The position numbers and the translations under genes are program-made. 64,000 bases of DNA from Methanotrichaceae archaeon (GTDB lineage Archaea > Halobacteriota > Methanosarcinia > Methanotrichales > Methanotrichaceae). The stretch lies in contig CAVVKN010000012.1 in NCBI GenBank assembly GCA_963748825.1, positions 1 through 64,000 of the forward strand. The letters run 5' to 3'. The notes beneath the pieces are model-generated. The model saw only the letters and a list, made by a program, of their open reading frames with translations, had not been told where the DNA came from and did no database searches. Each line of letters begins with the position of its first letter. Position 1 is the first letter of the stretch. Shown here in pieces: positions 1-60,730 of this stretch.

Positions 1-174
1 TAAAAACGCGGGCATCCGTCTGGGAGATGTAGTCTTCCAGCTCCTGGGGATTGCGATGGGCGGAGAGAACTTTATGCTCAAATGACGCCCCCTTCTCCTC
101 CAGTTTTCCTCAGCGACCTTGTCCACAATTGCCTGATCTGATTTGGAGCCCGAAATTATTGCAATATCGACCAT
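1..174 (-). CDS. purE: PurE (N5-CAIR mutase/AIR carboxylase), 5' part, runs off the window; apparent frameshift near 104-108
   Basis: Manual translation from ATG 174 gives MVDIAIISGSKSDQAIVDKVAE, then in a shifted frame LEEKGASFEHKVLSAHRNPQELEDYI (GSxSD and SAHR PurE motifs). Confidence 0.85.
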   Translation of the reverse strand, partial: MVDIAIISGSKSDQAIVDKVAEENWRRRGRHLSIKFSPPIAIPRSWKTTSPRRMPAFL

Positions 175-177
175 AAT

Positions 178-462
178 CTATCCTTGATTTCGGCCCTGCA
201 GCTCATGTTGCTTATTCACGCTCATCATAATCAGGATCTCAAAGATGCTCTTGACAGCCCCAGTGTCCAGATTCAACTCCGTGGCCAGATCCATGGCCCT
301 GGATAGAACCCTCATCTCGCGATGTGGATCGCTGATCGGCTTTCCTTCTGCCCTTTTAGCCTCAAAGATCTTCTTAGAGGTGCCTATGCGCTGATAGATG
401 AGCCTTATGATCTGCTCGTCAATCTGCTCAATATCGCTGCGATGCTCTTGTAGCCCCATCAA
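178..462 (-). CDS. Chorismate mutase (AroQ-type)
   Basis: 94 aa, RSDIEQIDEQIIRLIYQR...ISDPHRE; overlaps the shikimate kinase gene. Confidence 0.85.
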   Translation of the reverse strand: MMGLQEHRSDIEQIDEQIIRLIYQRIGTSKKIFEAKRAEGKPISDPHREMRVLSRAMDLATELNLDTGAVKSIFEILIMMSVNKQHELQGRNQG

Positions 463-1307
463 ATTCCCCGGCCCTTAGATGCGCATCTATTATTGGTCCT
501 CGTTCTTATCACTCTTCCGCCCAGAGGTCTCCAGGCAGCTTCAAGAACGTCCATCCTATCTTCATCAATTATTGCCGCATAAGCCGGTCCGGTTCCCGAA
601 AGGCTCACTCCTTCTGCCCCGGCCTCCAGCGCCAGGAGCAATGGCTCGGTAGGCAGGCCCAAAGCCGCGCAATAGGCCAGGCCGTTCAGGGTCATAGCCC
701 TGCCATAATCGCTGCGCATGGCCAGCTCGTAGATCACGTCCGCCATGGGCGCAATGAGCCGGGAGCGGGAAACATTGGTATCGATGGAGAAGAGCTTTCG
801 CTCAGGAACCAGGAGCATGACAATACGAGAGAACTCTTCCCGCTTGAGGAGGAGCATCCTGGCGTTGTCTGTAACTACAACGCCGCCCAGCATTGAGGCC
901 AAAGCGTCGTCCAGAGCGCCGGTAATGGTCACCCCCACTTCCCGGGCGGCGGCCACGCCGATCTTGGCCGCCTCTACAGGGTCCATCTCTTCTTGCAGAG
1001 CATCCAGGGTTGCCAGGACGGTGGCGTTGGCCGCGGTACTGCTGCTCTTGAGACCGCCGGCCACAGGGATCTCGCTGTAAGTTCGCACTATCGCGCCGTA
1101 GCAATAGCCCAGTCGCTCTTGCACCATGCGCACACAGGCCTCGATGAGGCGAGTGTCCATACCAGGAACGTCTCCCAAAATGTCGCCGGAATTGTTCAGC
1201 TCCACTTCGGCCCGTGTTTTGAGCTCGATTCCAAAGGCCGCCCCCTTCCAGGTGGCAACTGCATTGAGAACTGTGGCAGCGCCGTTTGCCCATGCATATC
1301 CTTTCAT
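459..1307 (-). CDS. aroK: Archaeal shikimate kinase (GHMP family)
   Basis: GAATVLNAVATWKG start, IPVAGGLKSSS GHMP motif, TITGALDD, SGTGP. Confidence 0.92.
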   Translation of the reverse strand: MKGYAWANGAATVLNAVATWKGAAFGIELKTRAEVELNNSGDILGDVPGMDTRLIEACVRMVQERLGYCYGAIVRTYSEIPVAGGLKSSSTAANATVLATLDALQEEMDPVEAAKIGVAAAREVGVTITGALDDALASMLGGVVVTDNARMLLLKREEFSRIVMLLVPERKLFSIDTNVSRSRLIAPMADVIYELAMRSDYGRAMTLNGLAYCAALGLPTEPLLLALEAGAEGVSLSGTGPAYAAIIDEDRMDVLEAAWRPLGGRVIRTRTNNRCASKGRGI

Positions 1308-1327
1308 GAATTTATCAGGTATCTCCC

Positions 1328-1852
1328 TTAAGCCTGCTCCATCTCAAAGATCTTCTTGAGCTTGTCCAGCTCTTTCGCAAACTCTTCCTTGCCTTCGCGA
1401 GTATATTTTGCAATCATCTTATTCAGATATTCAAGTTCTGTGATGGATGAGACGAAGATGGGCTGATAGCTGCCTAATTCAAAGAGCGGCAAGACCTCGA
1501 CACCGCCTTTGGTTGACATATCCTCCAGCCCCTTTACGACTACTATGAACGCGAAGTTCTTGTAGCCCAGTCCCCGGGCAATGTTCTTGGCGAAGCTGTT
1601 CATCTGCTGCACTCTTCGAGAAGAGAGGTCTTTGTAGGCTGCAACTGAATCTTTGTACTCCACAAACATGATGGATTCATCGGACCAGAGCAGGGCGTCA
1701 TACTCCACCACGGCAATAGCGTTCTTTAGAGCCACTACATTAAAGAGGACGCCGCGACACCAGCTTATGTTGAGGTGAAGCCGAAAGTCCGCTTCCGTCA
1801 TGGGCGTGTTCCTGGGCTTCAGGACATAAGGGTCGCTGGACAGTTCAATCAT
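1328..1852 (-). CDS. Hypothetical protein, possible PD-(D/E)xK/NERD-like nuclease fold
   Basis: EYDALLW...FVEYK resembles the E-x-D...E-x-K motif; sits in the operon-like run with aroK. Confidence 0.5.
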   Translation of the reverse strand: MIELSSDPYVLKPRNTPMTEADFRLHLNISWCRGVLFNVVALKNAIAVVEYDALLWSDESIMFVEYKDSVAAYKDLSSRRVQQMNSFAKNIARGLGYKNFAFIVVVKGLEDMSTKGGVEVLPLFELGSYQPIFVSSITELEYLNKMIAKYTREGKEEFAKELDKLKKIFEMEQA

Positions 1853-2468
1853 GAGGTATCACTTCTCTTTTCAGATAGATGGACTTTTCCCGTCGCATTA
1901 ACCATTTTGGTTATAACCAGTGGCTAACGACTACTCCACCAGCGCCAGGCACCAGGCACAACAGTTCACAGAGGATGCAATGAAATAGAAGAGTCCATAG
2001 CTTGGCAATTGTCTTGTTGAGCTGGAATTGCATCTTCATACAACGCGAGACTTTTCAGTCCTCCATGGTACTTCACACAAAAAGAGAGAAGTCTATATAT
2101 TTATTTCATTAGAATAATTAAAAATTAGTCGATAATATATTCCTTTTAGCAGAACATATTCTGGAAGAAAAAGCCGCTTAAGATACTGGTTTAAATGGGC
2201 AATTTTCAGAAATTTCTTTGTGATAACGCCAACAATCGCAAATAATTTATACTACACATTCTGTCGGAACATCAGTAACATAGTTTCGTATCAAACATTC
2301 GAACATCTCCGGGAATGGGGTCGGTCTCCTTTCTTCGGTTTTGTGGCAGGATCGGGAAGGGAGCATGGCAGCATATTTCGGAAGCCTGGGGGGCGCGCGC
2401 AGTCGGCAAAGAGCCGCGAGTATTGGCAGAATGATATCATCCGGAATAAGCACAAAAGAGGCGGCAGC

Positions 2469-5400
2469 ATGAGATGGCTGCTGCTCCTGGCCCTGCTGAC
2501 CATACTTTTGCTCGCATCTGCCCAGGCATCTCTGGTCAAAGTGGGCGCATACGACACGCCAGGATATGCCAAGAGCGTGACCCTGTCCGGCAGCTACGCC
2601 TATGTGGCCGACGGCTATTCTGGCCTGCAAGTCATCGACATCAGCAGCCCCACCAGTCCTTTCCTGAAAGGCACATGCAACACTCCCGGCTACGCTCATG
2701 GTGTGGCCATATCCGACAACTACGCCTATATGGCAGCCGGCGAGTCTGACCTGCAAATCATCGACATCAACAACCCCGTCAATCCCTCGTTGAAGTGCAC
2801 ATACAGCACGCCAGGCATTGCCTATGGAGTTGCCCTATCTGGCGGCTACGCCTATGTGGCCGCCGGCGATTCTGGCCTGCACATCGTTGACATCAACAGC
2901 CCCGTCAATCCCACATTGAAGGGCACATACGACACGTCAGGCACTGCTAACGGCGTGGCCCTGTCCGGCAGCTATGCCTATGTAGCCGACGGCAGTTCTG
3001 GTCTGCACATCGTTGACATCAACAGCCCCGTCAATCCCACATTGAAGGGCACATACGACACGTCAGGCACTGCCAACGGCGTGGCCCTATCCGGCAGCTA
3101 TGCCTATGTGGCCGCCGGAAGTTATGGCCTGCAGATCATCGATATCATCGACCCGGACAGACTCTCACTGAAAGGCACATACAACACGCAGGGCACTGCC
3201 AATGACATGGTCCTATCTGGCAGCTATGCCTATGTGGCCGATGGCAGTTCTGGCCTGCAGATCATCAACATCAGCGACCCAGCCAGCCCCTTTCTGAAGA
3301 GCACATACGACACGCCAGGCACTGCCGGGGGCGTGGCCCAGTCCGGCGGCTACGCCTATGTGGCCGACGGCGATTCAGGCCTGCAGATCCTCGCGGAAGG
3401 AGCATCCCTGCTGGGCAAGGCCTGGCATGATCAGGACTGCGACGGCCTCTGGGACTCGGGCGAGCTTGGCTACCCAAACGTTCCGGCAAGGCTTCTGGAC
3501 GGTACCGGAAGCCCCATTGCAGGCAAATCAACGACCACCGGCAGCGATGGCAGCTACTCCTTCCGGGACCTGGTTCCAGGCGATTATTATGTGGAGTTCA
3601 GCTTGCCCCAGGGCTGCGCCTTCAGCCCCAAAAACCAGGGCACTGACGACAGTCAGGATAGCGATGTGAATTCCAATGGAGTAAGTGAAAAAATCATATC
3701 CTTTCCTGGTCAAAGCCATAGTCTGGATGCCGGGATCTTTGCAGCCTATTCCATCTCCGGCATGAAGTTCAACGACCTGGATGGCGATGGTACTAAGGAC
3801 ACGGGTGAAGGCGGCCTGGATGGCTGGAAGATCTACAACGACAGCAACAATGACGGCAGCTTCCAGGAGGGCGAGATCTCTGCTATCACCGGCTCGCACG
3901 GTTCATATCAGTTCCAAAACCTGCCACCAGGAGACTACACCCTCCGCGAGGTTCAGCAGACCGGCTGGGCACAGACGACACCATCGGAAAACCTGCATAG
4001 CGTGGTGCTGACTAATGTGAACGTCGATAGCATCAACTTCGGTAACCGTGGAGCCCTCTCCATCTCCGGCATTAAGTTCAACGACTTGGACGGCGATGGT
4101 ACCAAGGACACGGGAGAAAGTTGCCTGTCCGGCTGGGACATCCAGCTCAAGGACAGTAGCGATTACCTCTTGCAGACCGCTACAACTAGCTTCGAGCTGG
4201 GCCAAGAGGGCAGTTACGAGTTCGTAAATCTGCAACCCGGCACCTACCGGGTGTACGAGGTTCAGAAACCCGGCTGGGTCCGGACAGTTCCTGTACAGGA
4301 GTACTATAGCGTAACCCTAACCAACTCTCCTTCCGGTGGGAATATCTTCGGTAATAACCTGTTGGCGATCTCCGGCGTGAAGTTCGAGGATCTGAACGGT
4401 AATAGTGCCAAGGATAGCGACGAGCCGGGATTAGAAGGCTGGACAATTAAGCTCAAAAGAGATGGCACGGAAGTCGCCAGCACTCTGACGATTACAGGTG
4501 GAGCTTATTCGTTTGCAGGCATCACTCCAGGTAGCTACACGGTTGAGGAGGTCTCTAAGCAATGCTGGGCTCAGACCTATCCCGCAGGCAATGTATACAT
4601 TGTAGTAGTCTCCAATACTGGACAGGTTGCGGTCACGAAAACAGATCAGACTTCCGTTGCGTCGACTGAGGTGAACTTCGGCAATGTTCCTACAGCCAGT
4701 ATTAGCGGCATGAAGTTCGAGGATCTGAACGGCAATGGTGCCAAAGATAGCGGCGAACCGGGATTAGAAGGCTGGACAATTAAGCTCAAAAAGGGTATCA
4801 CAGAAGTCGCCAGCACTCTGACGGTTGCAGGTGGAACTTATTCGTTTAGCGGCATCACATCCGGCAGCTACACCGTTGAAGAGGTAGTTCAGGACGGCTG
4901 GGTTCAGTCTTATCCCGCCTCACCAGGGACGCAAACAGTAACGCTGGTCTCTGGAGTAGCAGGACCGACAGACATCAATTTCGGTAACCTGCGCACGACC
5001 AGTTTTGCTGGCATGAAGTTCGAGGATCTGAATGGCAATGGTGCCAAGGATACGGACGAGCCGGGATTAGAAGGCTGGACAATTATGCTCAAAAATGGTA
5101 TCACAGAAGTTGCCAGCACTCAGACTGTTACAGGTGGTGCTTATTCGTTTACAGGCATCATACCCGGTACCTACGTAGTTGAGGAGGTCTCTAAGCAAGG
5201 CTGGGCTCAGACCTATCCAGCAGGCAATGTCTACACGGTAGTGGTCATCAATGCCGACCAGGTTACCGTCACGAAAGCAGATCAGACTTCAGTCACCTCG
5301 ACTGAGGTGAACTTCGGCAACGTGCCTACTGCCAGTATTAGCGGCATGAAGTTCGAGGATCTGAACGGCAACGGTCAGAAGGATGCAGAAGAGAAGGGGC

Positions 5401-8237
5401 TTAAGGACTGGACCATCAGGCTGCAAAGCCCGCAGATCACCGAGACCACTACGACCACCGGCCAGGACGGTTCATATCAGTTCCAAAACCTGCCACCTGG
5501 AGACTACACCGTCGGCGAAGAGCTGCAGAGTGGCTGGCTGCAGACATCTCCCGCTGGCGGCTCCTATTTGGTGATGCTCACGGATTCCGATGTCTCCGAG
5601 AGGGACTTCGGGAACCGCAAGCTCGTGGAGGCTTTCCTTGTCCAGATTACGGCCGATCCCCAGACGGTGCTGCCAGGCCAGGAGATCATCTTCAACATCA
5701 CCATCAACCGCCAGGGCGATATCCTGCTCGATAGCCTGGGCGCGGAATATACGCTACCTAAAGGTCTGAAGTTCATCTCCTCTAATCCCAGCCCTCAGAG
5801 CGTAATCGAGAACGCTGACGGCACCAGCACACTGATCTGGACAGTACTTGCCTTTGGCTCACAGATGGCTGCCCAGACGGCCGAATCTCAGGCCGCATCT
5901 GCGAACCTCGCAGGAGCGCCATCGCCTTCAACCACCATAACCGTAACCTCTCAAGTACAGCCAGGAGCACCGGAAAGTCTCACCAGCACAATCGTGGTCA
6001 CGGGCAGCACCGGTCAGGCAGCCGTGGCCCCGGTCATCGCCCAGACAAACGTGAAATGCCTGAAGCTGCTGAGTGACCCGGTGAAGCTGAACAAGACCTC
6101 CGACTTAAAAGAGGTCTGGCCAGGGACTACTGTCAGATACACCATCACTTACGAAAGCCTGGTGGACATCCCCCTGACTAATGTTGTGATCACGGAGCAT
6201 GCCTCTTCCGATCTCATCTTCCTCTCCGCTAATCCGGCACCGGATGCGGGAACGGAGAACGTCTGGAGCATCGGCACCCTGCCTCCTCTGGGCAAGGGCA
6301 CCATCAGCGTCCTTTTCCAGGTTAAAAATGCCTCAAATCTGAGTTTCGAGAGCCAGTCGTTCGTGTCAGGTAGCGGCTTTGTCAACAGCTATCGCCGCCT
6401 ATCCACGGAAACGCATGCAAGCGGTCTGAAAAACAGCGTTACCCTAACCGGTGACCAGTTCAAGCCCGTCTCGACAACCTACTACGTCAAGCTGCAGGAG
6501 AATGAAGGAACCATACTGCTCAAAAAGGAGCACGGCAGCGGAGAGTACAGAAACGAGGTGGTGGCAGCTTTGCAAATGCAAAACAGGTCGATCAAGAGCA
6601 TTAGCACTCTTCAGGCCGTCTACCGGACCACAAGCTTCGCTCTGCTAGGTGATAAGTCGATAGATTATGATTCCAGGGTATCCTCCCTGACCTATACCTG
6701 GAACCGCGCCACACATGCTTCGACCAGCCAGGAGTTCCGGTATGCCAAGAGCCTGGAGATGGATCAGCAGTTCTTGCTGGACCAGAACGAGACGATCATG
6801 TCGATGGAGGCGGAGTTCGTGGGCCAGGCCCATCTGGGCGTGCGCAAGAAGGATGGAGAAGCTGTCAAGCCCTCGCCCGTCTTCGAGTCTTCCCAGGACT
6901 ATGCCGGGACCTTCCGCATCAACCAGAGCCTGCAAGACTATGGCAGCAACGTGCGCATGATCCGCAATACCACCGGCCTGGGGCTAGCGGCCAGTGACCA
7001 GCGCCTGAAAAAGAGCCAGCGAAGCTATGAGCATGGCTTTGGCTCGTATGAGGGCGAGGAGCTGATCAGCACTGCGGAAAGCTTCATCGCCAAAGACCTG
7101 TTCGCCAGTTACGATCCGCAGTACGGCGACGGCAAATGGAAAGCGGGCATCTGGTCAAAGAGCCCCGGCCAAAGCTTCCTGGGCCAGGAGATTGCCGGGG
7201 CCGACTACATCCTGGAGGAGACAAAAGCGGAGGGCTTGAACGACATGTCCACCAATCTCAGATTCCAGGGAAAAGCCAGGCTGCGGGCCGTCTCAGAGAG
7301 CGCTCAACGCGAGGCGGATCTGGATGAAGAGTACGTGGGCCAGTACTCCTTGCAGCGCGAGGTTCACCTGGGGGGAGCATCCCGCTTCGATCGGCCTCAT
7401 CTCACATTGAACAAGACCGGGCAACTGGTGCCAGGCACCGCTGCAGCCGATTACACCATCACAGTTCTTAACGACGGCAACGCGGCCCTGGGGCCGGTCT
7501 ATGTTTGGGACATCTTCCCGGCGGGAACCGATTATCTGGGCTCCTCGCTCAAGCCCGAGCGGCTGCAGCCGGGCTATGCCAATTGGTCGCTGCACTACCT
7601 GGGCATCGGCCAGTCTGTGAACATCCACCTGCGGCTGAATGTAACTGACTCGCGGGACGAACTGGTCAATGTGGTCTACGCCTCGGGCGGCTATAATGAC
7701 CAGTGGATCAGCGCGGGCAACATGAGCGTCATGCAGTTCGGCTGGCTCTCCTGCTGCCCGCCAGAGATGCTCGTGGAAAAGCAGGCGCGCATCGATGCGG
7801 CGGACAGCCGGCTCATCTGGTATCGCATCCTTCTCAAAAACCAGGCCAACGTGAGCCTCGTAGCGCAGGTCACGGACCGCCTGCCTACGGGCCTGCAGCT
7901 CTTGAATGCCTCGGCACAGCCCCAGGTGGAGGGGCCGGATCTTGTCTGGGTAACTACGGCCATCCCTGCTGGTGAAAGCCGGTTCATCGAATATCGGGCC
8001 CAGGCCATGAGAAACGGCAAGTTCGTGAACACGGCCATGGTAGAGGCTCATGCCCTGGACGGCTCAGGCGGGACATCGACAGAGGCCAGCGCGACGGTGA
8101 CGGTGGGCGAGGCGACATCCTACGCCGAGGGCGGCTGGCGGCCACCGGAATGGGGGCTGGACAGATCGGAGATGATCTGCGACGATGAGATTGCCGGGGA
8201 TGGCGCGAGCTGTAGCTGTCCGCTGGTTGGTGAGTGA
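2469..8237 (+). CDS. Large secreted/surface protein: signal peptide, LVIVD repeats, multiple SdrD-B/CnaB-like domains, DUF11-like domains, Cys-rich C-terminus
   Basis: Likely start MRWLLLLALL at 2469; about 7 YAYVADGxSGLQIIDI repeats; repeated ISGMKFEDLNGNG..D..EPGLEGWTI; LNKT..YTITV..D..P modules. Confidence 0.85.
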   Translation: MRWLLLLALLTILLLASAQASLVKVGAYDTPGYAKSVTLSGSYAYVADGYSGLQVIDISSPTSPFLKGTCNTPGYAHGVAISDNYAYMAAGESDLQIIDINNPVNPSLKCTYSTPGIAYGVALSGGYAYVAAGDSGLHIVDINSPVNPTLKGTYDTSGTANGVALSGSYAYVADGSSGLHIVDINSPVNPTLKGTYDTSGTANGVALSGSYAYVAAGSYGLQIIDIIDPDRLSLKGTYNTQGTANDMVLSGSYAYVADGSSGLQIINISDPASPFLKSTYDTPGTAGGVAQSGGYAYVADGDSGLQILAEGASLLGKAWHDQDCDGLWDSGELGYPNVPARLLDGTGSPIAGKSTTTGSDGSYSFRDLVPGDYYVEFSLPQGCAFSPKNQGTDDSQDSDVNSNGVSEKIISFPGQSHSLDAGIFAAYSISGMKFNDLDGDGTKDTGEGGLDGWKIYNDSNNDGSFQEGEISAITGSHGSYQFQNLPPGDYTLREVQQTGWAQTTPSENLHSVVLTNVNVDSINFGNRGALSISGIKFNDLDGDGTKDTGESCLSGWDIQLKDSSDYLLQTATTSFELGQEGSYEFVNLQPGTYRVYEVQKPGWVRTVPVQEYYSVTLTNSPSGGNIFGNNLLAISGVKFEDLNGNSAKDSDEPGLEGWTIKLKRDGTEVASTLTITGGAYSFAGITPGSYTVEEVSKQCWAQTYPAGNVYIVVVSNTGQVAVTKTDQTSVASTEVNFGNVPTASISGMKFEDLNGNGAKDSGEPGLEGWTIKLKKGITEVASTLTVAGGTYSFSGITSGSYTVEEVVQDGWVQSYPASPGTQTVTLVSGVAGPTDINFGNLRTTSFAGMKFEDLNGNGAKDTDEPGLEGWTIMLKNGITEVASTQTVTGGAYSFTGIIPGTYVVEEVSKQGWAQTYPAGNVYTVVVINADQVTVTKADQTSVTSTEVNFGNVPTASISGMKFEDLNGNGQKDAEEKGLKDWTIRLQSPQITETTTTTGQDGSYQFQNLPPGDYTVGEELQSGWLQTSPAGGSYLVMLTDSDVSERDFGNRKLVEAFLVQITADPQTVLPGQEIIFNITINRQGDILLDSLGAEYTLPKGLKFISSNPSPQSVIENADGTSTLIWTVLAFGSQMAAQTAESQAASANLAGAPSPSTTITVTSQVQPGAPESLTSTIVVTGSTGQAAVAPVIAQTNVKCLKLLSDPVKLNKTSDLKEVWPGTTVRYTITYESLVDIPLTNVVITEHASSDLIFLSANPAPDAGTENVWSIGTLPPLGKGTISVLFQVKNASNLSFESQSFVSGSGFVNSYRRLSTETHASGLKNSVTLTGDQFKPVSTTYYVKLQENEGTILLKKEHGSGEYRNEVVAALQMQNRSIKSISTLQAVYRTTSFALLGDKSIDYDSRVSSLTYTWNRATHASTSQEFRYAKSLEMDQQFLLDQNETIMSMEAEFVGQAHLGVRKKDGEAVKPSPVFESSQDYAGTFRINQSLQDYGSNVRMIRNTTGLGLAASDQRLKKSQRSYEHGFGSYEGEELISTAESFIAKDLFASYDPQYGDGKWKAGIWSKSPGQSFLGQEIAGADYILEETKAEGLNDMSTNLRFQGKARLRAVSESAQREADLDEEYVGQYSLQREVHLGGASRFDRPHLTLNKTGQLVPGTAAADYTITVLNDGNAALGPVYVWDIFPAGTDYLGSSLKPERLQPGYANWSLHYLGIGQSVNIHLRLNVTDSRDELVNVVYASGGYNDQWISAGNMSVMQFGWLSCCPPEMLVEKQARIDAADSRLIWYRILLKNQANVSLVAQVTDRLPTGLQLLNASAQPQVEGPDLVWVTTAIPAGESRFIEYRAQAMRNGKFVNTAMVEAHALDGSGGTSTEASATVTVGEATSYAEGGWRPPEWGLDRSEMICDDEIAGDGASCSCPLVGE
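2540..3395 (+). repeat. Intragenic tandem 126-bp LVIVD repeat units, two nearly identical at DNA level
   Basis: ctgcacatcgttgacatcaacagccccgtcaatcccacattgaagggcacatacgacacgtcaggcactgc occurs twice, 126 bp apart. Confidence 0.85.
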
Positions 8238-8522
8238 GAAAAAGGCTCTTGGGAATAGGGTGCTGCTCATTCATTTTATTATAGTAGATGATAAAGGAAA
8301 CCAAGATATAACACTTAATTTTGCGGATTGTGCATTTCGAATTATTGTAGTTAGACCAAGATCCCCTCGGCCAACGGAAGATCCTCGGAATCGGAAAAGA
8401 TGGATACGGGATCTATGATAGGAAACTGAGGGAGCACTCCACGGCCAGATCGCTCCCGTCAGTCTTTTCGCGACCTTTATCGGCTCATTGCCAGAGGACG
8501 ATACAAAAGCCCATAGCTGTAC

Positions 8523-8765
8523 TCAACTCAGTTCCTCATTAACTCGATTAATGGCTTCCAGAAGATTTGCGCCTTTTTGTGTGGTTTCATACAATACGTT
8601 TTTTCCTGAGTTGACTTCTATTAGTTTGCTTCCGATCAATGTCTCCAAGTAGGGCTTTACCGTCTTGAAGTTGAGGTTTACCTGATACACTATTCGGGTC
8701 TTGCTGGCACTTTTCGCGCACGTATCTAGAATTTGGGCTAAGATCTCTTCACGGCTTCTCTTCAT
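8523..8765 (-). CDS. Small winged-helix transcription regulator (ArnR1-like/HTH_45 type)
   Basis: MKRSREEILAQILD..SKTRIVYQVNLNF..YL..L...LI...YETTQKG is typical of this archaeal family. Confidence 0.8.
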   Translation of the reverse strand: MKRSREEILAQILDTCAKSASKTRIVYQVNLNFKTVKPYLETLIGSKLIEVNSGKNVLYETTQKGANLLEAINRVNEELS

Positions 8766-8844
8766 GCTCCACCTCTTACTGAGCTACGGATTTCCAATCC
8801 GGAATAGTACTATTGATGCATCGCACGCTGTTTATTTAAGGACA

Positions 8845-8882
8845 TATGGCACAGAACATGGATTATAGCACAAAATGTGAAC
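8845..8882 (-). promoter_or_regulatory. 38-bp conserved motif copy 1, 5 bp upstream of a TTAAATA TATA box for the wHTH gene
   Basis: + strand tatggcacagaacatggattatagcacaaaatgtgaac; aligns without gaps to 4 other copies. Confidence 0.7.
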
Positions 8883-9243
8883 ATATATACTCTATCATTA
8901 TTTTTAATTTTGAAAGCGATTTTTATATTATTATTTATGATAACCATATTGATTGATTATTTAAGCTTAATAAAATAATTATTAATAATAGCTTTGGATA
9001 CAAATGAAATTAGCGGAACACAGCGCAAAATTGGCTAAAAAAAACGGATGGTCTTTCTAGAACATTCGGATAGAGAGTTAGGGTTATGACGGGTTATGAC
9101 GCGGGACTAATAAGAACCAATCACCATGACCTTATTTCCTCTCGTGATACACTGTTTTATATCGAATAGAGTAAATTCTAAAATTGGCATTGAGATTTCG
9201 GAAGAACCCTTCTATCTCCAATTTAGAGGAGTGTGGATATGCC

Positions 9244-11262
9244 TCAGATAGTTAGATGCTTTCTTAGCATCTCGTCCAGCTCCTCCATCTTAACCGGCTT
9301 ACTGATATAATCATCCATGCCAGCCTCAAGGCACTTCTCTCTATCTCCCTTGAGCGCATATGCGGTTATGGCGATTATCAACATTTTGTTGTGCCAGCGC
9401 TGGCGAATTATGCGGGTGGCCTCCAGGCCATCCATCTCGGGCATCCTTACATCCATGAGCACAACATCGTAGCTTCCCAATTCAAGAGCCTGCAGAGCCT
9501 CCTTTCCACTGGATACCGCATGTGCTCGATAACCCAATCTCTTAAGCATTGAGAGTATGACCTTTTGATTCGACACATTGTCTTCAGCTATAAGCACACT
9601 TAGATCCTCATGGCCGCTTCTTTCCGCGATTAGCTCATCATCGCTGTCGGCTATGGATTGCTTGGCAAGCGCGGCTTTTAGGGCATTGAAGAGATCTGTT
9701 TGCCTGACGGGTTTGGCCAAAGTGCCTGTAAAAAGCTTTGGTCTGATTCGTTGGCCGGCGAATATCAGAGCTACTATTGGCAATGCCTTATTGATCTTGA
9801 GTATCTCTTCCTCTAAAGAGAGGCCGTTATCTATTGTGCTAATATCCAGGAGAGCAATGTCCATGGGATCAATACTTCTTATTAATCCAAGAGCTTCTTC
9901 AAACCCTGTGCTGGTTATCGGAATCATGCCCCATTCAGCGGTTTGCATTTCTAGGTTACTACGAATGGTTCTATTTCCTTCTGCGATGAGGATTCGCTTT
10001 CCATCAAGCGGCAGCTGGATCCCGCTTAGAAGCGAAATATTGGGAACAGGTTTAGTTTTAATGGTGAAATGGAATGATGACCCCTCCCCCAACTTGCTCT
10101 CTGCCCAAATCCTTCCGCTCATTAGCTCCACCAACTCTCTGCTAGTGGATAAACTCGTGTCAGCAACCTTGTTTTTTCTCTTCTTTAGCTCTTCGGGCGT
10201 TTCACATGAGTTGAAAAGCCGATCTAATTTATCCGCAGGGATACCTATGCCGGTATCTTTGATCTCAAAGTGAATCTCGTATAAGGGATCAAGATGTACA
10301 GAAGATACTGACACATCAACCTCTCCCTTATCGGTGAACTCGACTGAGTTGCTTAGCAAATTGATGAGGATTTGAAGAAGCTTCTTCGGGTCACCGATTA
10401 TTACATCCGGTGAAATTCCATCTATCTTGTATGCCAGATCCAGCCCCTTCGCCGTTGCCTTTTTAGCAACTGACTGCAGAGCATCCTCAATGCAATTGCG
10501 CAGATTAAATGTCCTAATTTCAAGCTCCGTCTTCTCTCGCTCTATCTTTGAGAAATCGAGGAAATCATTTACAACGGCCATCAGAGCATCTGAAGATATT
10601 CTGATGGTCTCTACGAAATCTCTCTGCTCTGCAGTCATATTCTCTTCAAGTAGCAGGCTTGTCATGCCCACTATGGCATTCATGGGCATACGAATGTCAA
10701 AGCTCATGTCTGTCATGAATTTTTTGTATGTCTTTAGCAGTTCAATTACACTTTTTTCATCATTTATGCGATATCTCTTTTTCCTTCCAACTTTCTCATG
10801 GGATAATATTTTGCGATCTTCTAAGATGTTGATGTATTTTGAGGCCGTCGAATGGCTCATTGACAATCTTTGTGCTATCTGAGAAAATGTGGATCCAGGT
10901 GACTCGACCAATATGAGGATTATATCTCGAAAACGCTTCTGCTGCAGTAATTGGGTTAATGCCCTCTCCTCTGGCTTGAGTTTGCCTGAAAGAAAATATA
11001 TTCTTAAGTTATATTGCTTTTGGCTAACAATTAATTCATTTTTCTCTAACTGATCGAGGTGATATCGCAAAGTACTAAGACTTATTTTAAGTTCCCTTGC
11101 GAGTTTCCTCAGGTGAGAGCCGGGATTATTCGAGATATAAGCTAAAATCTTCTCCCTATTATCATGGACAATGTTCTCTTGCATGTCGTCTCTGTCGTTT
11201 CCATCCAATGAATATCTATTTATTTGTTTTAATTTATTTCTGATGAAGTCACGTAGCTGCAA
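9244..11262 (-). CDS. Double winged-helix DNA-binding domains fused to a degenerate histidine kinase (His replaced by Phe) and two receiver domains
   Basis: N-terminal NPGSHLRKLARELKISLSTLRYHL and SPGSTFSQIAQRLSMSHSTASKY; H-box reads DMSFDIRMPMNA; G2 box replaced; C-terminal REC VLMDVRMPEMDG..KP. Confidence 0.85.
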   Translation of the reverse strand: MQLRDFIRNKLKQINRYSLDGNDRDDMQENIVHDNREKILAYISNNPGSHLRKLARELKISLSTLRYHLDQLEKNELIVSQKQYNLRIYFLSGKLKPEERALTQLLQQKRFRDIILILVESPGSTFSQIAQRLSMSHSTASKYINILEDRKILSHEKVGRKKRYRINDEKSVIELLKTYKKFMTDMSFDIRMPMNAIVGMTSLLLEENMTAEQRDFVETIRISSDALMAVVNDFLDFSKIEREKTELEIRTFNLRNCIEDALQSVAKKATAKGLDLAYKIDGISPDVIIGDPKKLLQILINLLSNSVEFTDKGEVDVSVSSVHLDPLYEIHFEIKDTGIGIPADKLDRLFNSCETPEELKKRKNKVADTSLSTSRELVELMSGRIWAESKLGEGSSFHFTIKTKPVPNISLLSGIQLPLDGKRILIAEGNRTIRSNLEMQTAEWGMIPITSTGFEEALGLIRSIDPMDIALLDISTIDNGLSLEEEILKINKALPIVALIFAGQRIRPKLFTGTLAKPVRQTDLFNALKAALAKQSIADSDDELIAERSGHEDLSVLIAEDNVSNQKVILSMLKRLGYRAHAVSSGKEALQALELGSYDVVLMDVRMPEMDGLEATRIIRQRWHNKMLIIAITAYALKGDREKCLEAGMDDYISKPVKMEELDEMLRKHLTI

Positions 11263-11557
11263 CCCAAGCTGTGAACTTCTCTCTTGGACAATATCGCATC
11301 AAATTCCACCGGATTCCCATAGTCTCCCTAGCGAGGAGGTGGCTGCTAATCTGTTATAGATATTTTGTGGTCAATTTCCATCAGTCCCAAAATAGGAGAG
11401 GACGAAATGGCAAGTAGGCTGGCCGCTAGTATTAATGGACGGCTATGTGGCCATAGTGAGTAGTGCGCTCCGGTAAGAGGCGTTCCGATTCTTTTTTTCA
11501 ACAGCGTCTAAATTTGCCGCCTCCTCTGTATAAGCTGACCTTATGCCTGAATGCATT

Positions 11558-11734
11558 CTAGGAAACCACCTGCACAAACCGCTCCTGTATACGATACCGA
11601 TGAAACTGCTCAGACTCCGCTATCTTTCCCAGGAAATCCAAACGCTGATCAATTTTATCAACTTCATAGTTCATCTTCGAGATCCTATCCGAAAGCAACT
11701 GACGTCTTTTGATAAGTGCCTCCCATTCTTCCAT
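11558..11734 (-). CDS. Small coiled-coil hypothetical protein
   Basis: ATG at 11734 with GGAGGTGA RBS; degenerate paralog near 31320-31520. Confidence 0.55.
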   Translation of the reverse strand: MEEWEALIKRRQLLSDRISKMNYEVDKIDQRLDFLGKIAESEQFHRYRIQERFVQVVS

Positions 11735-11809
11735 GTATTTCACCTCCGATTTACATCTTATTCGCATCTGATTTGCATCCAGATAATTGATACATTTGCA
11801 TAAGCTCTT

Positions 11810-11847
11810 TATGGCACATATTGAGAATTATAGTACAAAGTGTAAAC
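11810..11847 (-). promoter_or_regulatory. 38-bp conserved motif copy 2, upstream of a TTATGCAA TATA-like box
   Basis: + strand tatggcacatattgagaattatagtacaaagtgtaaac. Confidence 0.65.
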
Positions 11848-12040
11848 TATCAAATTTACCCGGTCGTGAATTTTTCCAGTCAATGTCTTAGGGATGATGA
11901 AAGCAGTATGTTGCTTTTAGGGCAGGTATGATGTCATAAGGGATCATTCATCCTGGGATGGGATCTAACTTGACTTAATAATTTCTAAGTAAATCAATCA
12001 ATATATGATTTTTTAGTTATAATTGCATGGTTGATATTAA

Positions 12041-12301
12041 TTATGTGAGCTTGGCAGTAACTCTATCCTTAAGATGTACCAATTGTAATATACTCATCCT
12101 CGCCAATTTGATAAGATGCTGTAGGAACGGGATGGAAAAAACCATGCTTCTCCGGGGCATAGGAAAGTTGCAGTTGGGGCATTGTGGAATCCTCAGGATA
12201 ATATTTATCAAATAGAAGATTCCTAAACCTCTAATAAAGCCTTTCCACGTTAAATACATATTGGGCTTTACATCCTTCCGGCAATATCTACAGAGTACCA
12301 T
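12041..12301 (-). CDS. LITAF-like zinc-ribbon membrane-associated protein (paralog of 18688-19038)
   Basis: CRYC - hydrophobic helix - CPNC. Confidence 0.65.
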   Translation of the reverse strand: MVLCRYCRKDVKPNMYLTWKGFIRGLGIFYLINIILRIPQCPNCNFPMPRRSMVFSIPFLQHLIKLARMSILQLVHLKDRVTAKLT

Positions 12302-12589
12302 ATATCCACCATTTATATTACTAACACAGGTTTTGACAAATTAGCGCCTGGAGACCCCGAGAATTTGGTTCAGGCTCTGTTCGGAAGGTACTTCGAAATG
12401 GGCTTACCACTATTTATTAGGAACTGATAGTATTTAAGATATCATAAGACAATCTCCGCCAACTTTTGTCCGTAAGCTTGATCCTCCTCCCCTTCAGCAG
12501 CCCATCTCCTGTTCCCATCTAGAATTATCCCGATATGTTTGGTATTCGTTTCATGGACTCCGAACTAATTTTGAAGGTGCTAAATTTTG

Positions 12590-12884
12590 GTTTCCATTGG
12601 TGCTGTGATAGAAGCATCCATCGTTCCTGCAGACAGGTCCGTGAATGCCTGATCATTGGTAGCAAATACCACGAAGGTATTATTGCTTATATGCAATCCT
12701 TCATTATTCCGAGTGCCCACCACATCAGCTTTCTGGATGGCTGCAGAGTACGTATTCAGGTTTCCCAGATCCTGGCCGCCTCCAGGACGCCGTAATCCGC
12801 GCCAGTAGCTCCCATGAGAAGGGTGATCGATATAAGCGATGCCAATAGCAATATCGGCAAAGTCCGTTTGATTTTTACGATCAT
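12590..12884 (-). pseudogene. Truncated, frameshifted fasciclin (FAS1)-domain secreted protein
   Basis: ATG 12884 gives signal peptide MIVKIKRTLPILLLASLISITLLMG; a second frame gives GNLNTYSAAIQKADVVGT..EG..TFVVFATNDQAFTDLSAGTMDA (FAS1 H1-like). Confidence 0.65.
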
Positions 12885-13176: not shown

Positions 13177-15735
<2,559 letters not shown>

Positions 15736-15747
15736 AATAGTGCTCAG

Positions 15748-16140
15748 TCATCCTTTCGTTTTCTGGGGTTTCACCTCTTGCAGGGGATCGACGATTTCTG
15801 TCGTACCGATGTGCAAGTCCATTCCTACCAGAACTCGCCTCGTGTCCGACATGCTCCCAATCAGTTTTCTCAGAGGCGGTGGAAGCTCTTTGATGAGCGT
15901 AGGCGCTGCTACAATTTGTCCATCTTTGGCGAGAATGGGCTGCTGGTAAACATCAACCACTTCGAGTTGATATCTGCCTGCCAGGTATGTCTCGCATATG
16001 CGCTTGATGTTTTCGATTGCCTGAAGAGACTTTGGGTTCATACCTGCGACAAAAAGGCGTAGGACATACTTTTCCTGACTTAGCCGCTTGAGTGCTTCCT
16101 CAAACTCCTGGGTCGTGTCTTTCTGCTCGTCCATAGGCAA
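15748..16140 (-). CDS. kaiB: KaiB-family protein (second copy)
   Basis: YVLRLFVAG..S..AI..I..ICE..L.GRY.LEVVD...P.LA...IVAAPTLIKELPPPLRKLIG. Confidence 0.92.
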   Translation of the reverse strand: MPMDEQKDTTQEFEEALKRLSQEKYVLRLFVAGMNPKSLQAIENIKRICETYLAGRYQLEVVDVYQQPILAKDGQIVAAPTLIKELPPPLRKLIGSMSDTRRVLVGMDLHIGTTEIVDPLQEVKPQKTKG

Positions 16141-16169
16141 CCCCTCGTTTTCGAATCAACTGACTTTTG

Positions 16170-16490
16170 CTATGCCGGTCTTAGATCAAGACCTACTAAA
16201 ACCTTCTCTGTATTGGATAGGTCGCCGATAATCTTCTTTAAGGGGGGCGGCAGCTGCCTTACCAGAGTGGGGATGGCCAGGATCTGATCTCCCTTAGCAA
16301 GCTGAGGTTTCTCCAGCAGGTCTATTATCTCTATTTTATATCTGCCTGCCAGGTGCTCCTCGCAGATCTTCTTGAGATTGGCAAAGGCAGCAAGGCTCTT
16401 CCTGGTCTGACCTGCCACATAGAGCCTCAGTATGTAGACATTTTCTCCTGGCTGCATGCCGGACTGAACTGTTTCAGCTCCTTCTTCCAT
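16170..16490 (-). CDS. kaiB: KaiB-family protein
   Basis: [28 protein letters not shown]...[26 protein letters not shown]. Confidence 0.94.
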
Positions 16491-16531
16491 TTGATCTCCT
16501 CAGCTTCCTTTAGAGTGGCTATCAGCCTTTC

Positions 16532-18223
16532 TCAAACGTGCCATGTCCGTGTGACTTTCTTATCTATGGCTTCACGCTTGAGTTCCTCCTCCCCAACCAA
16601 TTTTTTCAGCTCTTTTTCTTCCGTCTCGAACTCTGAACGAAGTGCAGCAATCTGTTCATCCAGTGATCTCAGCGTTTTCTCCAGATCGCGCTTCTTGCGT
16701 TCAGTCTCTTGCTTTTGAGCCATGGCTTCGGCTTTCTCCCGAGCCTCCACAACCGCTCTTGAGGAGCCCATGAGAAGTCCTCCTGTCTGGCCCAGATAAA
16801 CATCTGTCAGCTTTACGCCCTCGCCTGTGATCAGGTACTCGCGTATCTGGTTGGAGTGCGCCATGCCACGAGACTTCACCACTGACAAGCCACGATTGCG
16901 TTCATCGCCCTCCTCAAACATCCGCAGCCTGATCCAGGTATCCATCAGAGAAGAGATTCCCTGGCCAGACTGCCCATCCTCCTCGCTATCAATCAGGCTG
17001 GTAGAGAGCGCGGTTATACCCCTCCGTTTGAGGTAATCAATCAGCCTTGTCAGCATGAACTTCACATCGGTTTCTGTTCCGACGTTCGTCAGGTTCGAGA
17101 TGGGATCGATGATCACCACTTTAGGCTGGAACTTGTCGATGATCTTTCGCATCTCCAACAGATGCATCTCAATACCTTTAGCCATCGGCCTTGAGGCGTG
17201 GATCTGAAGGAGACCTGCGTTAATGCATGAATTGAAGTTGATGCCGATAGAACCCATGTTGCGGCCGATCTGGCTGGGTGACTCCTCGAAGGCGAAGTAA
17301 AGGCAGCGCTCATGTCGGCGGCATGCAGCATCTATAAAATGAGCCGCCAAGCTGGTCTTGCCAGTGCCCGCCGTCCCTGAGATCAGAATGCTGCTCCCGC
17401 AAAAGTAACCTCTTCCCCCCAGCATATTGTCAAGCCGCTCGATTCCGGAAGATATCCTCTCTGTGGAAGCGGTATGCTCCAGCCCGAGGGATGTTATGGG
17501 CAGAACAGAGATGCCGTCTTCCTCTATGAGAAAGGGATACTCGTTCGTGCCGTGCTTCGAGCCGCGATACTTGACGATGCGAAGCCTTCTGGTGGCGATC
17601 TGCTGCTCCATGCGGTTGTCGAGGAGTATTACGCAATCGGCAACGTACTCCTCCAGGCCGAAGCGTGTCAGTGTGTTATCGCTACGCTCACCTGTTACGA
17701 TGGCCGTTACTCCCTTGCTCTTCAGCCATTTGAAGAGCCTTCGAAGCTCTGAACGCAAAATGGCATAATTCTTAAACCCTGCAAAAAGCACCTCAATAGT
17801 GTCCAGGACCACGCGCTTGGCTCCGATGGAGTCAATGGCAGATCCCAAGCGGATGAAGAGACCTTCTAGATCATATTCCCCCGTCTCCTCAATCTCTGAG
17901 CTGTCGATGTAGATGTAATCGATGAGGATCTTTTTTCTAGCCGTTAGGTCTGCCAGGTCGATTCCCAGGGAGGCGAAGTTCTTGGTCAGCTCCTCGGAGC
18001 TCTCCTCAAAGGCTACGAAGACTCCAGGTTCATCATATTTGAGGGCCCCCTGCGCGAGGAACTGCATGGAAATCAGAGTCTTGCCTGAGCCTGCGCCACC
18101 TGCTATTAGAGTAGGACGTCCTTTAGGAAGCCCACCATCCGTGATCTCGTCTAACCCGTTGATCCCCGTAGGGGATTTCTCTAAACCAGCAGAATTGATG
18201 TCAGCAGTGTTCGTGTCCGTCAT
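16532..18223 (-). CDS. kaiC: Double-domain KaiC with C-terminal coiled coil
   Basis: Two Walker A motifs (GGAGSGKT, GTAGTGKT), two FEES, KYRGS/KSRG, phospho-site region ISSLMD. Confidence 0.95.
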   Translation of the reverse strand: MTDTNTADINSAGLEKSPTGINGLDEITDGGLPKGRPTLIAGGAGSGKTLISMQFLAQGALKYDEPGVFVAFEESSEELTKNFASLGIDLADLTARKKILIDYIYIDSSEIEETGEYDLEGLFIRLGSAIDSIGAKRVVLDTIEVLFAGFKNYAILRSELRRLFKWLKSKGVTAIVTGERSDNTLTRFGLEEYVADCVILLDNRMEQQIATRRLRIVKYRGSKHGTNEYPFLIEEDGISVLPITSLGLEHTASTERISSGIERLDNMLGGRGYFCGSSILISGTAGTGKTSLAAHFIDAACRRHERCLYFAFEESPSQIGRNMGSIGINFNSCINAGLLQIHASRPMAKGIEMHLLEMRKIIDKFQPKVVIIDPISNLTNVGTETDVKFMLTRLIDYLKRRGITALSTSLIDSEEDGQSGQGISSLMDTWIRLRMFEEGDERNRGLSVVKSRGMAHSNQIREYLITGEGVKLTDVYLGQTGGLLMGSSRAVVEAREKAEAMAQKQETERKKRDLEKTLRSLDEQIAALRSEFETEEKELKKLVGEEELKREAIDKKVTRTWHV

Positions 18224-18536: not shown

Positions 18537-18687
18537 ATATCTTTAATACTTTTAGTTCCTTATAAGTAATGGTTAAGACCTTTCAAACCACCTTCCGAAC
18601 TGAAGAGCCAGAAACCTCCTTCTCGGCTCTCCTGGTCGATAATTGTCAAAACCTGTATTAGCTAATAATAGATCGAGGACATATAGT

Positions 18688-19038
18688 ATGGTACTTTGTG
18701 GATATTGTCGTATCAATGTAAAGCCCAAGATGTATTTAACGTGGAAAGGCTTTATTAGAGGTTTAGGATTCTTCTATTTGATATATATTATCACAAAGGT
18801 TCCACAATGCCCCAACTGCAATTTTCCTATGCCCCGGAGAAGCATGGTTTTTGCCTTCCATCCCCCACCGCAGCTTATCAAATTGGCGAGGATATGTGTA
18901 TTTCAACTGATCCATTTTAAGGATCGGGTAATATCCGCTTCTCGGAGATACAATATAAATCGCAGATTCTATCCATCCCAGAATTTCGGAAGTATGAACC
19001 CAAACAAAACCACATATTTCAATAATATGTTTAAGTAG
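18688..19038 (+). CDS. LITAF-like zinc-ribbon protein
   Basis: MVLCGYC...hydrophobic...CPNC; start chosen by alignment to the paralog. Confidence 0.65.
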   Translation: MVLCGYCRINVKPKMYLTWKGFIRGLGFFYLIYIITKVPQCPNCNFPMPRRSMVFAFHPPPQLIKLARICVFQLIHFKDRVISASRRYNINRRFYPSQNFGSMNPNKTTYFNNMFK

Positions 19039-27487: not shown

Positions 27488-27507
27488 GGTCTTCTTCTCT
27501 TGTAATT

Positions 27508-30500: not shown

Positions 30501-30580
30501 TTCATGCGAAGTTCTCCCTTTCTCGAAAGCAATAGCTCGCTTCTGTGCTGTATTTCCTCTGCCAGCTTGATCTGCCCCAT
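27508..30580 (-). CDS. CheB methylesterase/CheR methyltransferase fusion with coiled coil and PAS, split by a +1 frameshift near 29514-29518
   Basis: GGSAG, HLDP, SGMGTDG (CheB); [31 protein letters not shown] (CheR); removing one G from a G5 run restores [18 protein letters not shown]. Confidence 0.9.
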
Positions 30581-43263: not shown

Positions 43264-43313
43264 AGCACTCCCTCTCCTACCCGCGATTTATCGCATAGCT
43301 TTTTCATGCTTAG

Positions 43314-60686: not shown

Positions 60687-60730
60687 TCTCGCCCGCCTCA
60701 GGGCTTAAACGACGATTCTATCACTTAAGC

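Follow-up and report, generated by a model that had tools for sequence, protein, structure and literature searches.

The first 64,000 nucleotides (nt) of contig CAVVKN010000012.1 from a Methanotrichaceae archaeon (assembly GCA_963748825.1), referred to here as the window, contain a minus-strand gene encoding a tandem winged helix-turn-helix (wHTH) module fused to a histidine kinase core that has long since lost the phospho-accepting His and is followed by two receiver (REC) domains, REC1 and REC2. We propose that this protein is a phospho-controlled transcription factor, in which the pseudokinase core would dimerize and pass the state of REC2 to the DNA-binding domains, and we assign this reading a probability of roughly 55%. 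The dead kinase has been kept intact in approximately 100 relatives, and its core must therefore now do another job.

The domain order of the protein is tandem wHTH, HisKA, HATPase_c, REC1, and REC2. In the Pfam search, HTH_24 was matched in two stretches (E 6.9e-17), HTH_HVO_0163_N at residues 34-100, and MarR_2 at residues 113-163, together with HisKA at residues 181-242 (E 8.9e-14, 51.7 bits against a cut-off of 26.9), HATPase_c at residues 290-403 (E 2.7e-21, 76.5 bits against a cut-off of 26.4), and a single Response_reg stretch at residues 556-666 (E 7.3e-33, 113.5 bits). [quoted passage not shown]

9244-11184, minus strand: coding sequence of the proposed pseudokinase transcription factor, 646 amino acids (aa) and stop.
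11212-11219, minus strand: ATAGATAT, a TATA-like element within the first 26 codons of the 672-codon frame, 28-35 nt upstream of the ATG.
10963-11163, minus strand: winged helix 1 (residues 34-100; Pfam HTH_HVO_0163_N, HTH_24, and HTH_5).
10774-10926, minus strand: winged helix 2 (residues 113-163; Pfam MarR_2, HTH_24, and HTH_IclR; model).
10648-10758, minus strand: predicted continuous helix (residues 169-205; AlphaFold2 model), from the end of winged helix 2 into DHp helix 1 through the junction of LLKTYKK with F.
10537-10722, minus strand: DHp without phospho-acceptor (Pfam HisKA, residues 181-242).
10699-10701, minus strand: codon of Phe188, at the phospho-acceptor His position (alignment with both paralogs).
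10054-10395, minus strand: CA with a degenerate ATP lid (Pfam and alignment).
9706-10002, minus strand: REC1 (approximately residues 421-519), a probable pseudo-receiver, with D473 and K517 kept and Gly429 at the second acid.
9265-9597, minus strand: REC2, a canonical receiver (E560, D561, D604, T633, and K655; Pfam 556-666).

A sequence-only reading of this DNA had described a Phe in place of the phospho-His, and the alignment with both neighboring hybrid kinases (13177-15735 and 22652-27559, minus strand), which carry the phospho-His and read YGGTGLGL in the G2 region, confirmed this. The protein reads FMTDMSFDIRMPMNA in the H-box region, NLLSNSVEFT in the N box, and KNKVADTSLS in the G2 region. 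In the N box, NSVEF stands against NAVKF in the neighbors, with the Asn (N305) kept and the Lys changed to Glu. The G1 motif DxGxG is kept (D336, G338, and G340), and in G2, V-A-D-T-S-L stands against G-T-G-L-G-L, that is, VxDxS for GxGxG. The N-box change and G2 loss had been quoted correctly against both neighbors, and the replacement of the sensor region by a tandem wHTH agreed with the several Pfam HTH families and two winged helices found here. The D/ExxT/N phosphatase motif (as defined in PMC12963549), absent from the earlier reading, appears as F-D-I-R-M, with Met at the T/N position. Among the features of a functional kinase, the HisKA and HATPase_c folds were found, and the His, the phosphatase motif, and complete ATP boxes were lacking. 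The clade of the window's protein combines Phe and a phosphatase-position Met with the absence of G2, so that, by the alignment, none of its scored catalytic features is left.

The minus-strand ORF at 9244-11262 runs from a TTG for 672 codons without interruption. The unbroken frame described earlier therefore stood, but its length did not, being 26 codons too long: the aligned ATG, which is the start in 20/20 genomic orthologs, matches codon 27 (11184). The gene is accordingly placed at 9244-11184 because this ATG is common to all of these orthologs, public gene calls record the exact 646-aa product, and the TATA-like element lies at a suitable position, so that the ATG at 11184 is most likely the true start. 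ATAGATAT is a putative promoter element, and comparable A/T-rich blocks lie at the same distance from the ATG in four orthologous loci (L032, L034, L035, and L036). The upstream alignment of 10 orthologs revealed the TATA-like block only, the repeat search 5′ of the gene gave no convincing operator, and the Rfam search of the window gave no match.

In the homolog search, 7999 candidates were scored, and the family figures rest on the best 120 cluster representatives listed. The architecture wHTH-wHTH-HisKA-HATPase-REC-REC was found in 100 of these, at 45-94% identity. The family alignment held 101 representatives (P0001 and the 100 from P0004 to P0103) together with 18 canonical PAS/GAF-type hybrid kinases (the two window paralogs and 16 listed representatives); four of the 120 (P0105, P0106, P0107, and P0117) belonged to neither set, and P0107 and P0117 have Tyr by an H-box pattern search. 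Because that pattern search missed many H boxes, residues at the H box were counted from alignment columns. The His column contained Tyr in 68, Phe in 29, His in 2, and a gap in 2 of the 101 family members, versus His in 18/18 canonical hybrids. The two His-bearing members read S-H-G-V-R, with Gly at the adjacent acid position. Where the source records named an organism, the architecture-bearing proteins came from Methanotrichaceae. A genome search with the wHTH-wHTH-DHp part as query gave full-length matches at 21 places in 19/105 genomes of the window's family and, at E 1e-45, no match in the 196 genomes searched from seven further families within the class. In these searches, the pseudokinase family is restricted to Methanotrichaceae.

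The frame was open in all 20 extracted orthologs, of which 14 have Tyr and 6 have Phe. Selection was estimated as dN/dS by the pairwise Nei-Gojobori method in 16 pairs, with saturated-dS pairs, which give no ratio, excluded. The values were 0.07-0.39 for the whole gene, 0.06-0.12 for the wHTH pair, 0.02-0.13 for the DHp, 0.12-0.33 for the CA, 0.2-0.9 for REC1, the least constrained domain, and 0.05-0.17 for REC2. In a core tree of 108 rows, built with trait columns removed and 11 short rows omitted, the family and the canonical hybrids were split by one branch (SH-aLRT 100), and Tyr and Phe alternated inside clades, with 6 changes. The sequence-only reading had favored retained function over decay and had named, as checks, homologs with the same domain order and conserved loss of the His with dN/dS below 1. 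Because such homologs exist, the His is replaced in 97 of the 99 members having a residue at this position, and dN/dS is far below 1 in every domain, a retained function of the pseudokinase is supported by these comparisons. A decaying paralog on its way to becoming a pseudogene, to which the joint loss of several catalytic motifs might otherwise point, has a close to negligible probability, given the open frames, the whole-gene dN/dS, and a His substitution that holds across a family diverging to approximately 45% identity.

The ATP site was scored by six residues (N305, D336, G338, G340, G368, and G370) and was intact in 26/101 members (22 with Tyr, 2 with Phe, and 2 with His) and degenerate in 75/101. 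By these counts, the loss of the His is family-wide, and the loss of the ATP site is lineage-specific. The dead ATP site noted earlier thus holds for the window's lineage but not as a general trait, the 26 relatives keeping the N, G1, and G2 residues. At the phosphatase T/N position, the family has T in 56, M in 27, N in 7, V in 7, and I in 2 members. The ATP-intact members comprise one clade of the main family (21 rows, 20 intact) and a short sister subfamily of approximately 527 aa without REC1, which forms a six-row clade with a support of 100. The members of this sister subfamily (P0096, P0097, P0099, and P0101-P0103; loci L020 and G002:C1:1312459-1313274) keep all scored ATP-site residues and have His-Gly, Tyr, or Phe at the key position; as far as the alignment goes, they may record steps of kinase inactivation.

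The distribution of the intact sites bears on another explanation, namely, that Tyr relatives with an intact ATP site are still enzymes, acting by Tyr phosphorylation, or are ATP-sensing, and that the window's Phe form is a later dead derivative. The excess of Tyr over Phe members among those with all six residues (22 versus 2) and the confinement of the intact set to one clade and the sister subfamily fit this explanation. We nevertheless regard it as very unlikely: DivL shares the Tyr and retains all of its boxes yet shows no autokinase activity (PMC4211667), individual clades switch between Tyr and Phe, and the explanation is inapplicable to the window's protein, with its Phe and no G2.

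The origin of the DNA-binding module was traced by searching residues 27-178 against 1.84 billion representatives, which gave 4505 hits with E up to 0.001. Most of the best 150 of these 4505 hits were stand-alone proteins of approximately 170-180 aa with the same two winged helices (Pfam on 13), and among the same 150, N-terminal fusion to a kinase core was found in the close family only (P0083, P0097, the fragment P0126, and P0125). A stand-alone version of 174-179 aa, 55-61% identical, was present in 9 genomes of the window's family, and none was found in the window's own genome. On this comparison, the wHTH pair derives from a widespread archaeal stand-alone regulator of approximately 175 aa. 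The C-terminal helix of the stand-alone relatives reads ...LLxTYKKSFWDSFVDNVLELYLER, and the fused family keeps LLKTYKK and then continues into DHp helix 1 as FMxDMS[Y/F]E. A spacing of six residues between TYK and the Ser preceding Tyr/Phe holds in 95/101 members by pattern; three of the exceptions have variant letters with the same spacing by eye, and three are N-terminally truncated. As aligned, the last helix of the regulator is spliced in register into DHp helix 1.

Loci L021-L027, from further genomes of the family, hold stand-alone tandem winged-helix genes of this size. At least two of these genomes (G080 and G073) have a hybrid kinase gene a few kb from the stand-alone gene and on the other strand, which resembles the arrangement around the fused gene in L033 and L034.

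The helix LSTLRYHL in winged helix 1 was invariant in 66 sequences, and the net charge of this winged helix was +5 (family range +3 to +8), with the other domains mostly negative. HTH_24, HTH_HVO_0163_N, MarR_2, HTH_20, MarR, HTH_5, HTH_11, and HTH_IclR were all above their Pfam cut-offs. When the N-terminal module was modeled alone, the predicted local distance difference test score (pLDDT) was 92.7 and the predicted template modeling score (pTM) was 0.82. The fold, the invariant helix, and the positive charge suggest that the winged helices bind DNA in a sequence-specific manner. The winged helices might instead be a protein-binding or localization module of the ScpB type, making the protein a signaling adaptor and not a transcription factor: the top fold matches of the tandem were ScpB and the RNA polymerase III/TFIIIC arrays, with loose template modeling (TM) scores of 0.3-0.36. 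However, the single winged helices matched the SmtB, CzrA, and ArsR repressors far better (target TM 0.6-0.74, root-mean-square deviation 1.8-3.4 A), at least eight HTH Pfam families were above cut-offs, the segment resembling a recognition helix is invariant, and the charge is positive, so that we consider an adaptor very improbable.

The last receiver had been described as keeping its acidic pair, Asp, Thr, and Lys, and E560, D561, D604, T633, and K655 were indeed present; these five residues were invariant in 97/97 members having the domain. By its sequence, REC2 has the acidic pair, phospho-Asp, Thr, and Lys of a receiver in a REC fold. For REC1, a Pfam match was obtained in both paralogs and none in the window's protein. 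Across the family, D473 is kept in 92/94 members and K517 in 87, and the second Mg-binding acid is Gly429 here and Gly/Ser in the family, versus Asp in 15/18 canonical relatives; REC1 is probably a pseudo-receiver, as far as its residues tell. A natural 384-aa variant (P0125) has the order wHTH-wHTH-HisKA(Tyr)-linker-REC2, without HATPase_c or REC1.

In the DHp, the mean majority fraction was 0.80 in the family versus 0.85 in the canonical hybrids, and the two consensus sequences agreed at 48/70 positions, including the stretch following the Tyr/Phe. The fixed family-specific differences were three junction residues, V197I in the DHp, and S565N in REC2, with none in the CA. Because the consensus sequences are nearly identical, the receiver-facing DHp surface and the receiver appear to have remained matched, both to one another and to the paralogous kinases. 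Such matching is consistent with a docking of REC2 on the DHp in cis, and also with the phosphodonors of the paralogs' receivers serving REC2.

These data also bear on the idea of a constitutive DNA binder, in which the core would serve dimerization only, in place of the regulator's last helix, and the receivers would be vestigial or a phosphate sink. The splice does replace a probable dimerization helix, REC1 is relaxed (dN/dS up to 0.9), and the CA motifs decay in most lineages. Against this, REC2 has a dN/dS of 0.05-0.17 with five invariant catalytic residues, and the receiver-facing residues of the DHp are conserved, not those of its core alone. We therefore judge a constitutive binder to be quite unlikely.

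The full-length AlphaFold2 prediction, made with a 66-sequence alignment, had a mean pLDDT of 78.8 and a pTM of 0.47. In this model, one helix (model residues 143-179, corresponding to protein residues 169-205) runs from behind winged helix 2 through Phe188. The 494-residue core was matched by sequence to ShkA (PDB 6qrj) over residues 6-490 (E 3.6e-55), and the fold search of the core also placed 6qrj, full-length ShkA, first (E 2.2e-34, 503 columns), with GacS, RetS, and HK853-RR468 as the next matches and DivL (4q20) at rank 40.

ShkA of Caulobacter consists, in order, of DHp, CA, a pseudo-receiver Rec1, and Rec2, and it lacks an N-terminal input domain; during auto-inhibition, Rec2 rests on the DHp bundle, from which the binding of cyclic di-GMP (c-di-GMP) to Rec1 releases it (bioRxiv 10.1101/675454). 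The four-domain order with a central pseudo-receiver is common to both proteins, and ShkA is the best match in both sequence and fold. However, ShkA is an active kinase with its His, no N-terminal domain, and a Rec1 that binds c-di-GMP, whereas the window's protein has neither the His nor G2 and carries a DNA-binding module on DHp helix 1.

DivL, also from Caulobacter, has a conserved Tyr for the His and neither kinase nor phosphatase activity, and it binds DivK~P on the receiver-docking face of its DHp; according to an earlier finding cited in the same paper, DivL Y550F still binds DivK~P specifically (PMC4211667). Its authors proposed that the kinase core now senses a phosphorylated receiver and sends information back to the N-terminal domains (PMC4211667). 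The comparison with DivL, already made in the sequence-only reading, gained from the family data, the consensus Tyr (68/101) being DivL's residue (PMC4211667), although the window's own protein has Phe; the behavior of Y550F parallels the Tyr/Phe alternation in the family. The DHp kept as a receiver-docking surface and the proposed flow from receiver through DHp to the N-terminal domains are further likenesses. DivL differs in having an N-terminal PAS region, no DNA-binding domain, and no fused receivers, and it keeps the H, N, G1, F, and G2 boxes and acts on the kinase CckA. The window's protein, archaeal rather than bacterial, has Phe, a degenerate lid, its own receivers, and no PAS. Because the family branches beside its own canonical archaeal paralogs, the resemblance to DivL is convergent.

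PsmA of Streptomyces is likewise a hybrid-kinase-like protein without the His, has lost the D/ExxT/N and ATP-lid motifs, and is conserved in one organism family (PMC12963549). It differs in a variable residue at the His position (Glu, Asp, Gln, Val, or Tyr), in binding DivIVA at hyphal tips, and in having no DNA-binding domain (PMC12963549). The archaeal regulators LtrR and FilR1 have an N-terminal HTH and a C-terminal REC (PMC5847659), and FilR1 comes from the same methanogen group; these regulators have no kinase core between the HTH and REC, and FilR1 contains DUF1724/FilR1_middle. The sole FilR1_middle protein in the window's genome has no REC. Histidine pseudokinases (DivL, PsmA, and in part RetS) and archaeal HTH-REC regulators (LtrR and FilR1) are thus already known. 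Bacteroides hybrid two-component systems also combine a kinase core, a receiver, and a DNA-binding domain in one polypeptide, like the window's protein. In these systems, the kinase is active and membrane-bound, the sensor is periplasmic, and the C-terminal domain is of the AraC type, so that the domains follow the order sensor-kinase-REC-HTH.

RetS of Pseudomonas aeruginosa (PDB 6dk7, 6dk8, and 7n0e) offers the basis for a different explanation. It shares the HisKA-HATPase-REC-REC order, acts partly by binding and not by autophosphorylation, is among the best sequence and fold matches, and blocks GacS by replacing its homodimer interface (PMC8498467); it differs in being membrane-bound with a periplasmic sensor, a kept His, and no DNA-binding domain. 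A modulator of this type would use its pseudo-DHp to heterodimerize with the DHp of a paralogous kinase, such as that at 13177-15735, and block or redirect its trans-autophosphorylation, with DNA binding depending on the partnership and not on REC2 phosphorylation. The near-identity of the DHp consensus to that of the paralogs and the presence of a nearby hybrid kinase in 12/20 orthologous loci (within 10 kb on either side, some loci being short contigs) would suit this explanation; a rough expectation worked out by hand, with approximately 17 kinase genes in 2.9 Mb, is a kinase nearby in approximately one locus in ten. It leaves unexplained, however, the 97/97 invariance of the REC2 phospho-acceptor and the 384-aa variant, which has kept the DHp and REC2, and we consider it unlikely.

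For the phospho-controlled transcription factor proposed here, conservation, the predicted continuous helix, and analogy suggest, in line with the sequence-only reading, that the DHp may act as a dimerization and docking scaffold and that receiver phosphorylation may gate DNA binding. The DHp four-helix bundle would dimerize the protein, bringing together four winged helices, and would replace the last helix of the stand-alone regulator. REC2 would be phosphorylated through the genome's single histidine phosphotransfer (HPt) protein or directly by paralogous hybrid kinases. Depending on its phosphorylation state, REC2 would dock on or leave the Tyr/Phe face of the DHp, as with ShkA Rec2 and DivK~P on DivL, and the change that this causes in DHp helix 1 would travel through the continuous helix as far as the winged helices, altering DNA binding. 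Signal flow through the kinase core would be reversed, because the state of REC2 would run through DHp helix 1 to the winged helices.

The window's genome is 94.9% complete in 25 contigs. It contains 38 Pfam matches to receivers, and 32 ORFs were found with a self-built receiver profile, 15 of which are kinases with a C-terminal receiver. The Pfam scan took in 11 of the other REC-bearing ORFs. These 11 comprised a kinase with a C-terminal REC (C19:19167-21050), one REC-GAF-kinase, one REC-PAS protein, five REC-only proteins, two REC proteins with unassigned C-terminal halves, and one ORF without a Pfam hit. Among the ORFs scanned, the only REC ORFs with a Pfam DNA-binding domain were the studied gene and a 97%-identical copy on contig C8. 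Positions 1-12843 of the window are the reverse complement of C8:1-12842 at 98.98% identity, both at a contig end, and the C8 copy is probably an unmerged end overlap of two strain variants and not a duplication. The gene and its C8 copy have 29 differences (17 non-synonymous and 12 synonymous), all in codons 354-671 and none in the first half. The two receiver proteins with unassigned halves (C9:70396-71214, 272 aa, and C9:78189-78953, 254 aa) have C-terminal halves of approximately 130 aa that match no Pfam family and are possible new output domains.

One stand-alone HPt was found in the window's genome (C13:47347-47745), and an HPt was present in 19/19 genomes with the fused gene. The genes next to the studied gene that could serve as partners are as follows.

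13177-15735, minus strand: PAS-PAS hybrid kinase with an intact His and REC-REC, whose core is 51% identical to that of the studied protein.
15748-16140, minus strand: kaiB (130 aa).
16170-16490, minus strand: kaiB (106 aa).
16532-18223, minus strand: kaiC (563 aa).

These genes form a minus-strand row kaiC-kaiB-kaiB-kinase, with the 13177-15735 kinase as its last gene. By its proximity, this kinase is a candidate phosphodonor or partner. The hybrid kinases near 12/20 orthologous loci also count in favor of a phospho-controlled transcription factor. The row 13177-18223 resembles a KaiBC module for timing or stress whose output is a kinase. KaiBC was rejected as a general partner of the family, the neighborhood being found in 2/20 loci.

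A wider reading can be put forward only tentatively. In it, the proteins would be a reverse-wired kinase family, whose core, convergently with DivL, has become an allosteric transmission module; phosphorylated REC2 would dock on the Tyr/Phe DHp, and the signal would travel backward along one helix into four winged helices. The protein would then be the methanogen's only recognizable phospho-dependent DNA-binding output, gathering signals from approximately 15 hybrid kinases through the single HPt, and in this lineage the adjacent kaiC-kaiB-kaiB-kinase row would reach transcription through it as well.

Several observations weigh against the proposal of a phospho-controlled transcription factor. 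DNA binding, dimerization, phosphorylation, and gating are all steps that we infer. The interdomain geometry of the full-length model is uncertain at its pTM of 0.47, the junction helix block has a moderate pLDDT of 65-76, and the best tandem fold matches include ScpB and subunits of RNA polymerase III/TFIIIC, whose binding partners are proteins in addition to DNA. The CA is under purifying selection even where the ATP lid is lost, and 26/101 relatives have all six ATP-site residues; a pure scaffold accounts for neither, and in those relatives the binding of nucleotide, or even a modification of the Tyr, may play a part. With its fused form in 19/105 genomes of the family, the gene is accessory, and the HPt link is not specific, because an HPt is present in 78/105 genomes. 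Only the window and its nearest relative (L032) have kaiC/kaiB beside the gene. The RNA evidence is also weak: in two metatranscriptome runs from groundwater, small fractions of the stretch (0.15 and 0.06) are represented, by short contigs that are 90-97% alike and cover parts of the gene and of the small ORFs upstream. These contigs come from relatives, the libraries may contain DNA, and the contigs were not counted as proof of transcription.

Several other features were noted in the window. A 58-aa ORF (11558-11734, minus strand) with GGAGGTG just upstream lies between a small zinc-ribbon ORF and the studied gene, and one metatranscriptome contig overlaps it. The small ORFs at 12041-12301 (minus strand) and 18643-19038 (plus strand) are paralogous (71% identical over 83 aa), contain CxxC, a hydrophobic stretch, and CPNC, which makes them resemble a zinc-ribbon membrane mini-protein, and gave no Pfam hit; a copy adjoins kaiC in L032 too. 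Convergent with the studied gene is a plus-strand gene (2220-8237) for a 2005-aa surface-type protein with LVIVD, SdrD_B, SpaA, and DUF11 repeats. At 27508-30580 (minus strand), two ORFs overlap each other and the downstream 1635-aa kinase; the first contains CheB_methylest and CheR_N, and the second starts partway through the SAM-binding domain of CheR, after which PAS domains follow. The split of CheR across two frames suggests frameshifts in a giant CheB-CheR-PAS-kinase gene or sequencing errors. From 41224-46208 onward to approximately 55200, BREX-type defense genes were found (a BrxL Lon-like protease, a PglZ-domain protein, and a DNA methylase fragment), and next to them are genes for a Fic protein and for an AAA_15/AAA_21 ATPase with DUF3226. 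ATP-citrate lyase-like genes (Citrate_bind/ATP-grasp; CoA-ligase and citrate synthase C-terminal domain) occupy 59439-63963 (minus strand) and adjoin an aconitase-family gene.

The public names of the family members are generic ("CheY-like chemotaxis protein," "response regulator," and "histidine kinase FilI"). The literature searched gave no description of a His-less kinase core serving as the linker in a DNA-binding response regulator; the supplementary tables of PMC5847659 may list such proteins as hybrid kinases. Archaea have few response regulators that bind DNA, and for most archaeal two-component systems the output is unknown (PMC5847659). The hosts of this family are acetate-using methanogens whose kinases are almost all hybrids, and the family is a concrete candidate for how methanogen hybrid-kinase relays reach transcription. 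It is a second, independent case of the DivL-type His-to-Tyr pseudokinase solution, and the fusion to DNA binding, an easily assayed output, would make "backward" signaling through a DHp bundle directly testable. The natural variants, with Tyr, Phe, or His-Gly at the key position, an intact or degenerate ATP site, and REC1 and the CA present or absent, would form a dissection series for this purpose.

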